From a bacterium (GTDB taxonomy: Bacteria > Myxococcota_A > UBA9160 > UBA6930): DNA of 64,000 nt. Shown one piece after another: positions 40,195 to 60,991 of this stretch. Numbering within the stretch: position 1 is the first letter of the stretch; the number at the start of each line of letters is the position of its first letter. The notes beneath the pieces are model-generated. The model saw nothing but the letters and a program-made list of their open reading frames with translations. It made no database searches and was not told the DNA's origin. Where the stretch lies: contig JAAETT010000050.1 of NCBI GenBank assembly GCA_024228115.1, positions 16,750 through 80,749 of the forward strand, given 5' to 3'. The position numbers and the translations under genes were made by a program.

Positions 40195-40638
40195 ATGATC
40201 CTCTCCCAAACAGCTGAATACGCCCTCAGGGCGATGGCATGGCTGGCGATCATGCCGACGGGAGAGCCGATGCGCGTGAAGGATCTGTCGATCGCGACGG
40301 GTATCCCGAGCCACTACCTCTCGAAGGTGATGCGGCGCCTGGTGCTGGCCGGCCTGCTGACCTCGCAGAAGGGGCAGGGCGGCGGCTTCCTGCTCTCGAA
40401 GGCACCCGACGAGATCCCTTTCATCGACATCCTGACAGCGGTGGACGCCTACTCGACGGATGGACGCTGCGCCTTCGGTTGGGGGAAGTGCGACGCGGCT
40501 TATCCCTGTCCACTCCACGGCTCATGGAGCCGGCTGAACGAACAACTCCGGTCCTGGGCCGAGGGCACCACCCTGGCTGACATCGCGAAAGACGGGGTCG
40601 AGAACCGGGACCTCAGGGTGGCGAGGGCGGCGCGCTAG
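40195..40638 (+). CDS. Rrf2-family transcriptional regulator (NsrR/IscR-like, three-Cys cluster motif)
   Basis: wHTH N-terminus (MILSQTAEYALRAMAWLA...), GQGGGFLL motif, Cys triad C-x7-C-x5-C (CAFGWGKCDAAYPC). Confidence 0.85.
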   Translation: MILSQTAEYALRAMAWLAIMPTGEPMRVKDLSIATGIPSHYLSKVMRRLVLAGLLTSQKGQGGGFLLSKAPDEIPFIDILTAVDAYSTDGRCAFGWGKCDAAYPCPLHGSWSRLNEQLRSWAEGTTLADIAKDGVENRDLRVARAAR

Positions 40639-40957
40639 ACCCAGCGGAGCAACCGGCTCCAATCGCAGCCATGCGGTAGCACGGGTGTGCACCACTCGCG
40701 GGTTGCCGCTGAAGGCGGCCGAGCCGCATACGAAGGAGCCGTGCCCGCTCGGCCTCCCGTGCGCGGTCCTCGAGAGGAAAAGCGAGCAGAAACAGCGAAA
40801 TCGGGCCGCTCGCGAGGGCCTGCTGCGGGCCGCCAGATGTCGGCGTCTCCAGCCCTTACGGGTCTTTTCGCCGCATGTCCATGGGAGAGGCGTCCTCTTC
40901 CCTGGAGGAGCCAAGATCTGGCCAGGCGTTGGGCATGACGGACTCGTCAAGTTTTTT

Positions 40958-40989
40958 CAACCAAGTTGGTTGGCACCCGTCATATGACG
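40958..40989. promoter_or_regulatory. Two adjacent perfect palindromes in the leader of the Nod-like gene (candidate operators)
   Basis: CAACCAAgTTGGTTG (40958..40972, 7-1-7) and CGTCATATGACG (40978..40989, 12 bp), about 100-130 nt upstream of the ATG at 41088. Confidence 0.35.
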
Positions 40990-41087
40990 TACGCGGAGCG
41001 CCTTGAGGTGATTGTAGGCTCCGCGCTTGTAGGGACCACAAGTCGATAAAGAGATCTCTAGGTCGATAGATCAGACAGGAGTCTAGG

Positions 41088-59327: not shown

Positions 59328-59342
59328 GCAAGTCACGGGCCA
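59328..59342 (-). promoter_or_regulatory. sigma54 -24/-12 promoter element reading toward norZ
   Basis: The minus strand reads TGGCCCgtgacTTGCt with exact GG-N10-GC spacing, about 60 nt upstream of the norZ ATG. The adjacent divergent gene encodes a sigma54 activator (NorR). Confidence 0.6.
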
Positions 59343-59368
59343 AGAGAAAACTCTTTAAGATTCAGTAT

Positions 59369-59432
59369 GTTATGACGATAGTTATGATAATGGCAACCTC
59401 TCAAGCGTTATGATATTCATAACTCGTTATGA
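59369..59432. promoter_or_regulatory. AT-rich upstream region with 4x GTTATGA heptamers including a 7-3-7 palindrome (candidate NorR UAS)
   Basis: GTTATGA occurs at 59369, 59381, 59407 and 59426. GTTATGAtatTCATAAC spans 59407..59423. The last heptamer contains the norR ATG (59429). Confidence 0.45.
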
Positions 59433-60991
59433 AAGACTCAACGTCCCCGCTCGACCTGCTCCTCTCCATCGCCCTCGATCTGAACGCGTCCCTCACCGCG
59501 GAGGACCGCTACCAGCGCCTGGTGGCGTCCGTCCGCCGAGTCCTCCCCTGCGACGCTGCCGTGCTGCTGCGGCTGGAGGGGGATGAGCTGGTTCCACTCG
59601 AGGCGCAGGGCCTCGTGCCCGACGCCATGGGCCGGCGCTTCCCGCGCCGCGATCACCCGCGCTTGGACATCATCTGCAACGAACGCTTCCCCACGCTCTT
59701 TCCGCCCGACAGCTCCCTACCCGATCCCTTCGACGGATTACTGGAGAGCGACCCGCACGCGCTCAACGAGATCCACGCCTGTCTCGGCTGCCCGCTCTGG
59801 GCAGAGGGCGAGCTGATGGGCGCGCTTAGCATCGACGCCCTCGCGGCCAACGCCTTCGACCGCTTCGACCCGAGCTTCCTGGCCGCGCTGGGCGCCCTGG
59901 CGGGTGCGGCCATGCGCACCAGCAACCTCATCGAGACCCTCGAGCACACCGCATCTCGACACGGTCTCGTGGCGCACGACCTGCTCCGCGAAGCGCGGCA
60001 GCGCCGGGGCGGGCTGCTGATCGGAAACAGTCCGGTGATGGCGCACTTGCGCGAGGAGATCGCGCTGGTGGCGCGCTCGGATCTGGCGGTGCTCATCACC
60101 GGTGAGACGGGCGTCGGCAAGGAGCTGGTGGCGCGCTCCCTCCATGCCGGCTCGGCCCGCGGCGAGGAGCCGCTCATCTACGTGAACTGCGCCGCTCTTC
60201 CAGAGTCGCTGGCCGAGAGCGAGCTCTTCGGCCACCTGCGAGGTGCCTTCACCGGTGCAGAGGGGGCGCGCGCGGGGAAGTTCGAGGTGGCTGACGGCGG
60301 CACGCTCTTCCTGGATGAGATCGGCGAACTCCCCCTGGGCCTGCAGCCCAAGCTGCTGCGCGCACTCCAGGAAGGCGAAATCCAGCGCGTGGGAAGCGAT
60401 CGCCCGCTCCGCGTAGACGTGCGAATCGTCGCCGCCACCAATCGCAACCTGGATGTCGAGGTGGAGGCCGGGCGCTTCCGCTCGGACCTCTACCATCGCC
60501 TGAACGTCTATCGCATCGCGGTGCCGCCCCTGCGGCAGCGCCGCGAGGACATTCCAGCCCTGGCCGGGGCCTTCTGCGACGAGGACCGACGCAGGTTGGG
60601 CGTGGGCCCCGTGCGGCTGGCGCCCGAAGCGGTGGATCGGCTCGCTTCGTTCGCCTGGCCGGGCAACGTGCGCGAACTCCAGAACGCGCTCTCCCGGGCG
60701 GTTCTGCACGCCTCGGCCCACGTCCAGCGCGGCAAGGCGGTCATCGTCCGCGCCGAAGATATCGAGCCCGGGGCAGCCCTGGCGCCGGAGGCGACGGAAG
60801 AGGCGGCGCGACCCGCCGGTCTCCCGCTGCCGAGAGGGCAATCGCTGAGCGAGGCAGTGGAGGAGTACCGGCGCACGATGATCCGAGCGGCGGTGAGTGA
60901 GCACGACGGCAACTGGGCCGCGGCGGCTCGGGCGCTGGGCATGCAGCGAAGCAATCTGCACCACCTGGCCCGGCGCCTCGGTCTGCGCTGA
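59429..60991 (+). CDS. norR: NorR-type NO-responsive sigma54-dependent transcriptional activator (GAF-AAA+-HTH)
   Basis: N-terminal GAF, Walker A GETGVGKE, GAFTGA, Walker B FLDEIGE, ESELFGH, and a C-terminal Fis-type HTH (AAAARALGMQRSNLHHLARRLGL). Confidence 0.9.
   Translation: MKDSTSPLDLLLSIALDLNASLTAEDRYQRLVASVRRVLPCDAAVLLRLEGDELVPLEAQGLVPDAMGRRFPRRDHPRLDIICNERFPTLFPPDSSLPDPFDGLLESDPHALNEIHACLGCPLWAEGELMGALSIDALAANAFDRFDPSFLAALGALAGAAMRTSNLIETLEHTASRHGLVAHDLLREARQRRGGLLIGNSPVMAHLREEIALVARSDLAVLITGETGVGKELVARSLHAGSARGEEPLIYVNCAALPESLAESELFGHLRGAFTGAEGARAGKFEVADGGTLFLDEIGELPLGLQPKLLRALQEGEIQRVGSDRPLRVDVRIVAATNRNLDVEVEAGRFRSDLYHRLNVYRIAVPPLRQRREDIPALAGAFCDEDRRRLGVGPVRLAPEAVDRLASFAWPGNVRELQNALSRAVLHASAHVQRGKAVIVRAEDIEPGAALAPEATEEAARPAGLPLPRGQSLSEAVEEYRRTMIRAAVSEHDGNWAAAARALGMQRSNLHHLARRLGLR

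Follow-up and report, generated by a model that had tools for sequence, protein, structure and literature searches.

When two paralogues of the nitric oxide (NO) reductase NorB are encoded in one genomic region, the question arises of whether the cell controls them together or apart. This question is raised by a 64-kb stretch of bacterial DNA with a G+C content of ~65% (Myxococcota_A, assembly GCA_024228115.1, contig JAAETT010000050.1, positions 16,750 to 80,749), hereafter the window, in which a gene for a putative NO dismutase (nod) is accompanied by a second NorB paralogue, a quinol-dependent NO reductase (qNor), located ~13.5 kb past the end of nod and ~16 kb from its start. An earlier interpretation, made from the letters of the stretch without database searches (the sequence-only reading), proposed that qnor is controlled by NorR and sigma-54 and nod by a neighbouring Rrf2 regulator of the NO-sensing NsrR class. 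On balance, our comparisons favor the existence of two independently wired NO-handling modules in the region. Separate control, as proposed earlier, is strengthened by the fact that the predicted elements do not overlap and that neither type is present at the other gene, but the Rrf2 protein is not an NsrR. What goes beyond the identity of the genes we infer from comparative sequence analysis of uncultured genomes. Genes of the window were assigned by codon-position G+C and family scans, and the window proteins were used to search a comparison set of 80 genome loci carrying Nod-type genes of 62-92% identity (individual loci are cited below by L numbers). The closest match to the Nod of the window is that of L001 (92%), and the relatives are metagenome-assembled genomes of Myxococcota or 'Deltaproteobacteria'.

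The two paralogues are the following.

41088..43403, plus strand: Nod-type NorB paralogue (putative NO dismutase), 771 residues, with NorB cytochrome-c-like and COX1 domains
56935..59268, minus strand: canonical qNor, in an open frame 56935..59316 with a Met codon at 59268

By its sequence, the minus-strand paralogue is a canonical qNor. It matches the Achromobacter qNOR (6QQ5 and related entries) with 985 bits, its cytochrome-c-like and NorB parts are fused, and it retains complete quinol and FeB motifs (AHYTVEG, FHHLYF, SALEVVPL and VGDTIF). The Nod-like protein matches the Geobacillus qNOR 3AYF with only 413 bits, and its alignment to this structure shows that the FeB ligand H560 of the G. 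stearothermophilus enzyme is replaced by Asn536, that the catalytic-site residue E581 is replaced by Gln (Q557 in the window) and that the quinol site is lost (H328 to Met, E332 to Arg and D746 to Gly). Residues H535, N536 and Q557 are invariant across 21 Nod homologues of 65-88% identity. These three departures (FeB His to Asn, Glu to Gln, and the quinol site) are those defining the putative NO dismutases according to Ettwig et al. (PMC3413370). The label 'Nod-like' is justified at the level of the sequence signature, the name being provisional. We know of no Nod member for which the dismutation of NO into N2 and O2 has been shown biochemically.

The elements that we propose for nod are located in the 449-bp spacer between the Rrf2 gene and nod.

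40936..40959, plus strand: weak terminator-like hairpin followed by a T-run, 3' of Rrf2 and 5' of the nod promoter (consensus scan only, 5-bp stem)
40976..40991, plus strand: conserved palindromic box CCCGTCATATGACGTA, candidate activator site of a PAS-LuxR protein (phylogenetic footprint; matrix 31.8 bits)
41015..41020, plus strand: predicted nod -10 hexamer TAGGCT (fixed offset from the palindrome)
41043..41066: 24-bp palindrome TCGATAAAGAGATCTCTAGGTCGA in the nod 5' untranslated region (5'UTR), predicted Rrf2 operator (top matrix match in the window)

When the nod leaders of the closest relatives were aligned, one footprint, TCCGTCATATGACGGA, was found in otherwise unalignable sequence. With a score of 14 or more out of 16 taken as a degenerate match, this palindrome is present in the window and in 21 loci (22 of 81 nod leaders), centred upstream of the nod ATG by 81-128 bp in nearly every case and by 185-211 bp in two. 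A TAnnnT hexamer begins exactly 23 nt past the palindrome in 15 of the 22 leaders and 22 nt past it in 2, each other offset being found at most twice. In the window this hexamer is TAGGCT at 41015..41020, which places the predicted transcription start of nod at ~41027 and the centre of the palindrome at ~-42. The latter is the classic position of a class II activator, the lux box of LuxR being at -42.5. We propose that nod is transcribed from its own sigma-70-type promoter in the spacer, and since the promoter is predicted inside these 449 bp, the co-transcription of Rrf2 and nod is unlikely. A scan of 39850..41150 with the sigma-70 consensus found nothing, the -10 hexamer being identified solely by its constant distance to the palindrome. 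A sigma-54 promoter was also considered at nod, where TTGGCAC precedes the box, and was rejected because there is no GC at -12 and the TGG is not conserved. A second palindrome of the leader, CAACCAAGTTGGTTG (~40961..40975), belongs to the window only and is conserved in no relative. No Rfam match was obtained in 39800..41200 and the RNA of the nod 5'UTR folds no better than its shuffles (z = 0.45); a role of the leader as RNA is unlikely.

The presence of the palindrome follows that of a gene encoding a small LuxR-type protein.

51733..52242, plus strand: PAS-LuxR one-component regulator, 169 residues (GerE helix-turn-helix (HTH), alignment and AlphaFold2 model)

In the window this gene lies ~8 kb downstream of nod, the two starts being ~10.6 kb apart. 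A LuxR homologue is found near nod in 15 loci, immediately 5' of it and on the same strand in at least 10. The box accompanies the LuxR gene in 15 of these 15 loci, and no LuxR gene is found in the 59 box-less loci (0/59; Fisher p 8e-12, not corrected for phylogeny). The gene is also directly 5' of nod in L163 to L166, and in L163 it stands beside nod, ferredoxin, COX3 and nirS genes. The encoded protein has a C-terminal GerE HTH (51.6 bits), and the best PDB folds for its AlphaFold2 model (mean pLDDT 83) are VqmA and EL222, with a Foldseek probability of 1.00 to 6UGL, 6IDE, 3P7N and 8A5R and whole-chain TM-scores of only 0.36-0.44. Like VqmA of Vibrio and EL222 of Erythrobacter, it combines an N-terminal PAS domain with a C-terminal GerE HTH in ~170-230 residues, and the nod palindrome at ~-42 is placed as the box near -42.5 of LuxR-type class II activation. 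It differs from both proteins by four invariant Cys in the PAS domain (C36, C51, C55 and C83 across 26 homologues, with C92 nearly invariant), suggesting a cofactor other than 3,5-dimethylpyrazin-2-ol (DPO) or flavin mononucleotide (FMN), and by its linkage to nod, nirK, ferredoxin and oxygenase genes.

Three other boxes of the same type are present in the window, one of them beside the nirK operon and one beside a ferredoxin gene.

37480..38619, minus strand: nirK (copper nitrite reductase), final gene of the lipoprotein-sco1-nirK operon (open reading frame (ORF) translation)
38616..39368, minus strand: SCO1/SenC copper chaperone (sco1; Pfam PF02630, 126 bits)
39382..39942, minus strand: small lipoprotein-like ORF, first gene of the sco1-nirK operon (signal and lipobox-like N-terminus)
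40064..40079: palindromic box TCAGTCAAACGACCGA, candidate PAS-LuxR site between the lipoprotein-sco1-nirK operon and Rrf2 (matrix 22.1 and 23.4 bits on the two strands)
55146..55523, minus strand: YfhL-like 2x[4Fe-4S] ferredoxin (82 bits, slightly below the cutoff of 86)
55621..55636, minus strand: palindromic box TCGGCCGTATGACCGA, ~100 bp 5' of the ferredoxin gene (matrix 18.6 bits)
55775..55790, plus strand: palindromic box TCCGTCATGGGACGGA, 5' of a DUF3862 lipoprotein ORF at 55816..56181 (matrix 21.7 bits)

Only two exact GTCRWAYGAC matches exist in the window, the box at 40064..40079 being one of them. With the same matrix, equivalent boxes were found before the lipoprotein-sco1-nirK genes in L003, before nirK in L017 and before an AurF-like gene in L004. 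Segments homologous to the ferredoxin region adjoin nod in L001, L003, L005-L008 and L010. The lipoprotein-sco1-nirK order is found again in L001, L003 and L169, and the window nirK is 81-86% identical to the Cu-oxidase genes adjoining nod in L001, L003 and L167. The box at 55775..55790 lies ~33 bp (centre to ATG) before the DUF3862/BLIP-like lipoprotein ORF, at the position where L001 has nod, and may be what remains of the ancestral nod promoter, or else an active promoter of the lipoprotein gene.

Taken together, these sequence comparisons suggest that the palindrome is probably the binding site of the PAS-LuxR protein, and that this protein jointly activates nod, the nirK operon and the ferredoxin gene. 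It would act at nod as a class II activator from the 16-bp palindrome near -42. The presence of the same type of box at the nirK-operon/Rrf2 region and at the ferredoxin gene is the ground on which a joint activation with nod is proposed, so that NirK (for the production of NO), Nod and its likely redox partner would be switched on together. The PAS-LuxR protein appears from these data to be the most widely conserved regulator linked to nod, and its dominant conserved one; it had escaped the sequence-only reading. The palindrome could also be the target of a regulator encoded elsewhere, such as a DNR or NnrR of the CRP/FNR type, -41.5 being typical for the class II sites of FNR and CRP. Six box-bearing loci have no LuxR gene within 10 kb, and within 7 kb of the LuxR homologues of L161 (among P450 genes) and L162 (beside ferredoxin, AurF, Coq4 and FMO genes) there is no nod and no box. 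However, the half-sites read GTCA-N2-TGAC and not TTGAT-N4-ATCAA or TTGAC-N4-GTCAA, no CRP/FNR gene is found among the recurrent neighbours, and the box is present wherever a LuxR gene is near nod, including L163 to L166. A regulator of this type is therefore, in our opinion, distinctly unlikely. The orphan homologues of L161 and L162 also weigh against the role proposed for the PAS-LuxR protein, as does the fact that the LuxR-box co-occurrence is observed within one nod clade, so that the Fisher p is not phylogenetically independent.

Another palindrome, of the form TAGGTnnAAnnnACCTA, is located ~120-290 bp 5' of nod in L035-L039, L046, L047, L050, L067 and L068. These loci are of the Chromatiaceae/Gammaproteobacteria type and have no LuxR box, which points to a nod regulator of a third type among them.

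The second candidate regulator of nod is the gene that precedes it.

40195..40638, plus strand: Rrf2-family regulator of a non-NsrR subfamily (PF02082, 100 bits; TIGR00738, 106 bits)

The position of this gene upstream of nod, on the same strand, and the families of both products are those given in the sequence-only reading. The score on TIGR00738 exceeds the cutoff of 73.3, in agreement with membership of the Rrf2 superfamily. The IscR-type three-Cys motif described earlier is also found, as Cys92, Cys99, Cys105 and His108 align with C92, C98, C104 and H107 of IscR. The motif CAFGWGxC-x5-CPLH is common to the window protein and to its orthologues in L002, L003, L051 and L165, and the three Cys are kept in 5 of 6 members of the subfamily. 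The L167 orthologue (9264..9665), directly 5' of nod as in the window, is devoid of a 24-residue segment bearing all three Cys, which may reflect an error of assembly or a naturally occurring form without a cluster.

The assignment to the NsrR class could not be maintained. If the protein were an NsrR-type NO-sensing repressor dedicated to nod and to the divergent sco1-nirK operon, its place beside nod on the same strand and its three Cys would be well explained, as would the occurrence of its subfamily in denitrification clusters. Rrf2 regulators near nod are already noted in the literature, where nod-linked regulators including Rrf2/NsrR-nod pairs were drawn in a neighbourhood survey (bioRxiv 10.1101/2023.11.21.568154), and true NsrR-like proteins with canonical boxes do flank nod in the Alpha-type loci L009, L015, L016 and L018. 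There, a divergent Rrf2 protein reaches 142-144 bits on the NsrR model NF008240, and NsrR boxes with at most one mismatch lie between its gene and nod. In contrast, the Rrf2 protein of the window scores 36.7 bits on this model against a cutoff of 182, the last of the 7 families matched, and is only 24% identical to the Alpha-type proteins. The best match to the NsrR box gATGyAT-N5-ATrCATc in 39900..41100, which covers the nod leader and the divergent region, has 4 mismatches and lies within coding sequence, and no match with two mismatches or fewer exists in the whole window. The Rrf2 site that the earlier proposal expected on the sco1-nirK side of the divergent region was not found either, a matrix scan of the window giving no Rrf2-type box there; the gene directly divergent from Rrf2 is in fact the lipoprotein-like ORF, ahead of sco1 and nirK. 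Finally, the most conserved cis-element of nod tracks the LuxR-type protein. An NsrR at this place is thus highly unlikely.

From these scores, the window protein is better described as a member of an uncharacterised Rrf2 subfamily found in denitrification clusters, which is not NsrR. It resembles NsrR by the Rrf2 fold, the three Cys, the position in a denitrification cluster and a predicted palindromic operator within the leader of a gene for an NO-metabolising enzyme, whereas it differs by an IscR-like Cys spacing (C-x6-C-x5-C-x2-H) and by the box of its subfamily, TAGATAAA-N8-TTTATCTA. E. coli IscR is its best match among solved structures and its nearest one in sequence, with the cluster ligands aligned, but the score on the IscR model TIGR02010 (67 bits), although better than that on the NsrR model, stays below the cutoff of 207.6, and there is no isc/suf context, the neighbours being nirK, nirS, nod and COX-like genes. 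The orthologues occur in nirS/nirK and COX-like operon contexts. An Rrf2 gene was found within 10 kb of nod in 11 of the 80 loci after iteration of the hidden Markov model.

All Rrf2 orthologues examined, apart from the gene of the window, have an AT-rich 24-bp palindrome, TAGATAAA-N8-TTTATCTA, upstream of the gene or of its operon. In L169 this box, at 8879..8902, heads an Rrf2-lipoprotein-sco1-nirK operon. A symmetrised matrix was built from five of these sites (L002, L003, L165 and L167), and in four loci outside the training set, fetched via Rrf2 homologues, it found the box at 26.9-36.7 bits 5' of Rrf2 or its operon in 4 of 4. Applied to the window, this matrix gives 21.5 bits at 41043..41066, the next non-overlapping match having 6.0 bits and the maximum of 20 whole-window shuffles being 16.0 bits. 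The value of 21.5 bits was reached by none of 5000 shuffles of the nod leader and by one of 5000 shuffles of its last 120 nt. The site, at ~+17 to +40, follows the predicted -10 and precedes the ribosome-binding site, and the same position of the nod leader is matched in L167 (23.5 bits), L171 (20.7), L003 (18.0) and in L004 and L166 (25.9). Only four matches of at least 16 bits were found in 1.24 Mb of more distant loci. Strict searches for AGATAAA-N8-TTTATCT and searches for AAATGGAT gave no match in the window, and the conclusion once drawn from the strict searches, that nod has no Rrf2 site, was overturned by the position matrix.

Since the palindrome of the nod 5'UTR resembles the boxes of the subfamily's own genes, the Rrf2 protein is predicted to be a repressor of nod. 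We propose that it would hold nod repressed from the 5'UTR palindrome until its Fe-S cluster reports a signal, for which NO, O2 and the redox state are all candidates; that the signal is specifically NO is doubtful. The control of nod by Rrf2 put forward in the sequence-only reading is thus strengthened by a predicted site in the leader, whereas the NsrR identity attached to it is abandoned. The comparative data make the binding of Rrf2 to the nod 5'UTR somewhat probable, and several observations weigh against it. The sites in the nod 5'UTR reach 18-26 bits, less than the 27-41 bits of the boxes next to Rrf2 genes, and deviate in the right arm; L002 and L165 have Rrf2 near nod and no 5'UTR box; L004 and L166 have the 5'UTR box and no Rrf2 within 10 kb; and the Rrf2 gene of the window itself is without the box that all its orthologues have.

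The history of the locus bears on the same point. From 51.7 to 55.6 kb the window is syntenic with L001 (LuxR, rhomboid, COX3-like, Coq4 and ferredoxin genes). In L001 the syntenic segment ends at the shared box region, followed by nod-lipoprotein-sco1-nirK and then by a COX-like operon with a box. Compared with L001, nod is displaced by ~15 kb in the window, the orientation of the nirK operon with respect to nod is reversed, the COX-like operon is missing and Rrf2 stands alone between the nirK operon and nod; from these differences, the adjacency of Rrf2 and nod in the window is a derived arrangement. The COX-like operon is conserved and is composed of two COX1-family genes, a COX2-like gene, SCO1, a cytochrome b/ferredoxin fusion and a UbiA/CyoE-like gene, with an Rrf2-type box in front (L001 14935..17984; L002 15274..21742; L167 927..9107; L170 629..8933; L171 619..8717). 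Rrf2 is its final gene in L002, L167, L170 and L171, and the L001 contig ends inside the operon.

The adjacency could accordingly have come from a rearrangement, the Rrf2 protein controlling only the ancestral COX-like operon or itself and the nod palindrome being bound by another factor or being without function. This explanation takes support from the boxed COX-like operon of these five loci, with Rrf2 last in all but L001, from its loss in the window together with the box of Rrf2, from the homology, with reversed orientation, between part of the Rrf2-nod spacer (~40736..40896) and a segment that follows nod in L002, and from the weaker 5'UTR sites and their imperfect correlation with the presence of Rrf2. 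On the other hand, the 5'UTR site is the sole strong match in 64 kb, its position is kept in six loci with otherwise diverged leaders, and no fewer than three assemblies (those of the window, L167 and L171) share the order Rrf2-nod-hemA. In L167 and L171 the genes COX1-COX2-COX1-SCO1-cytb/Fd-cyoE-Rrf2 are followed by nod and then by hemA; in L165, nod-hemA is followed by an Rrf2 gene divergent from a LuxR gene; in L002 the COX-like operon ending in Rrf2 is ~2 kb from nod; and in L003 Rrf2 adjoins nirK. We consider an adjacency without regulatory meaning to be unlikely, and keep the repression of nod by Rrf2 as the working proposal.

The control of qnor is of a different kind, and its elements are the following.

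59429..60991, plus strand: NorR (GAF, AAA+ sigma-54 activator, HTH), 520 residues (NCBIfam NF003451)
59342..59327, minus strand: qnor sigma-54 promoter TGGCCC-GTGAC-TTGCT (-24/-12 pattern)
59381..59397: NorR-type upstream site A, GTTATGATAATGGCAAC (17-mer; tandem layout as in relatives)
59407..59423: NorR-type upstream site B, GTTATGATATTCATAAC, a perfect palindrome (17-mer)
59426..59442: NorR-type upstream site C, GTTATGAAAGACTCAAC, overlapping the norR start codon (17-mer, read from sequence)

The divergence of the canonical qNor gene from a gene for a GAF-AAA+-HTH NorR, indicated earlier, is confirmed by the qNOR match and by the equivalog NF003451, on which NorR scores 677 bits for a cutoff of 476. 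The Pfam domains GAF, Sigma54_activat and AAA_lid_14 and the GAFTGA loop are present. In an alignment including the NorR of Desulfosarcina ovata, residues R78, D99, D102, C118 and D136 of the window protein share invariant columns with R75, D96, D99, C113 and D131 of the Salmonella NorR, the same positions (R75, D96, D99, C113 and D131) being those that we take to be the non-haem iron ligands in E. coli.

The sigma-54 -24/-12 element announced between the two genes is likewise present and its position is conserved: 16 of 80 metagenomic norR relatives have GCAA-N5-NNGCCA on the opposite strand at a distance of 103-106 bp upstream of norR, the distance in the window being 101 bp. The pattern TGGCNC-N5-TTGCW has 3 matches in the window against 0.25 expected. 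The three NorR-type 17-mers have the form GTTRY-N7-RYAAC and are spaced by 26 and 19 bp from start to start, like those of relatives, in which the same three-site layout stands behind an IHF-like TCAA..TTA stretch, and all five GTTATGA/TCATAAC heptamers of the window fall inside 59369..59432. The norR-qnor spacer (59269..59428) has no copy of the canonical NorR core, GT-N7-AC, the sites of the window reading GTTAT-N7-ATAAC with a core AT-N7-AT, and this counts against their assignment to NorR. An A at that core position has been reported for Polaromonas (PMC1274295). D. ovata has the same divergent norR-qnor layout, with sites GTTGT-N7-ACAAC that contain the published core, and Salmonella norR-norV has three sites that are GT-N7-AC or near-identical. 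The AT-N7-AT sites are read as NorR-type because the relatives and D. ovata have the same tandem layout. Compared with the known NorR systems (norR-norVW of E. coli and Salmonella, norR-norAB of Ralstonia and norR-qnor of D. ovata), the window is alike in the divergence of norR and its target gene, in the GAF/AAA+/HTH architecture, GAFTGA loop, iron-ligand positions and sigma-54 -24/-12 element, and in the three tandem inverted repeats of which one overlaps norR; it differs in the core of the repeats.

It is very likely that NorR activates qnor via sigma-54. In this first module qnor would be transcribed from the sigma-54 promoter, with NorR activating from the three tandem inverted repeats overlapping the norR start, and the whole would correspond, largely by homology, to a classic NO-responsive detoxification circuit. 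This half is textbook and adds little by itself.

Among the NorR relatives that share the sigma-54 and three-site layout (L081-L104, L160), many have no qNor as a neighbour, and in several of these, for example L089, L091, L093 and L096, a hemerythrin-type gene takes the place of qNor next to norR. Since these neighbours vary, the target of this NorR clade differs between genomes. The other exact TGGCNC-N5-TTGCW matches of the window are at 5560..5575 (minus strand) and 22862..22877 (plus strand); the first, ~33 bp 5' of the start (5527) of a molybdopterin oxidoreductase ORF, may be a real sigma-54 promoter.

Put together in its complete form, our proposal is that the putative NO dismutase is under a dedicated two-sensor switch, with a four-Cys, possibly Fe-S, PAS-LuxR activator of nirK, nod and ferredoxin and an Rrf2 repressor acting in the 5'UTR, apart from the NorR/sigma-54/qNor circuit. 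We advance it as a tentative reading, less likely than not to be right as a whole. The assignment of regulators to sites rests on co-occurrence and on motif similarity in metagenome-assembled genomes, which weighs against it. As far as we found, the nod operators, the promoter architecture and the candidate regulons have no earlier description in the literature. The survey cited above (bioRxiv 10.1101/2023.11.21.568154) gives neighbourhood drawings only and calls the LuxR connection unclear, whereas here a single locus combines both types of regulator with a predicted promoter, candidate operators and candidate regulon members.

Oxygen-deficient waters and aquifers are rich in enzymes of the Nod type, which are highly transcribed there, and the organisms carrying them are mostly uncultured. 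If the proposal is true, the PAS-LuxR and Rrf2 proteins and their operators would define the signals (NO, O2 or redox) for the production of Nod, and would offer a heterologous, cultivation-independent route to probing its function, as two small cysteine-containing candidate sensors and their predicted operators can be tested in vitro without culture of the host. That Nod and qNor share a genome but no predicted control elements is an argument that, for the cell, the two paralogues are not redundant.

Downstream of nod lies a further gene linked to it.

43738..45105, plus strand: hemA (glutamyl-tRNA reductase), 3' of nod (Pfam GlutR domains)

The tblastn match to the L167 hemA begins at 43624, 5' of the annotated ATG at 43738, suggesting that the true start of hemA is probably upstream of this ATG and making the nod-hemA gap (43403..43738) shorter than it appears. 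The two genes may be co-transcribed, and the nod-hemA order is found again in L165, L167 and L171.

Besides nirK, the window has a nirS gene for a cytochrome cd1 nitrite reductase (10346..11974, minus strand), near which are found a molybdopterin oxidoreductase (2897..5527), an NrfD-like subunit (6929..8152) and a 4Fe-4S subunit (8165..9508). With nirS and nirK both in the window, the organism has both nitrite reductases. The same NrfD and nirS neighbourhood is found beside the Rrf2 subfamily in L168 and L169.

Finally, nod and the PAS-LuxR gene are repeatedly accompanied by a group of genes encoding an AurF-like di-iron protein, a hemerythrin, a DUF2249 protein, an unannotated protein of 435 residues, a COX3-like protein, Coq4 and an FMO-like flavoprotein. 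In the window this set occupies 46321..47286, 48142..50504, 53529..54854 and 61109..63067, and it is also present in L161-L166; in relatives it comprises, in addition, P450s, luciferase-like monooxygenases and small ferredoxins. Many of these genes encode O2-dependent enzymes, which fits the idea of Nod as a supplier of O2.

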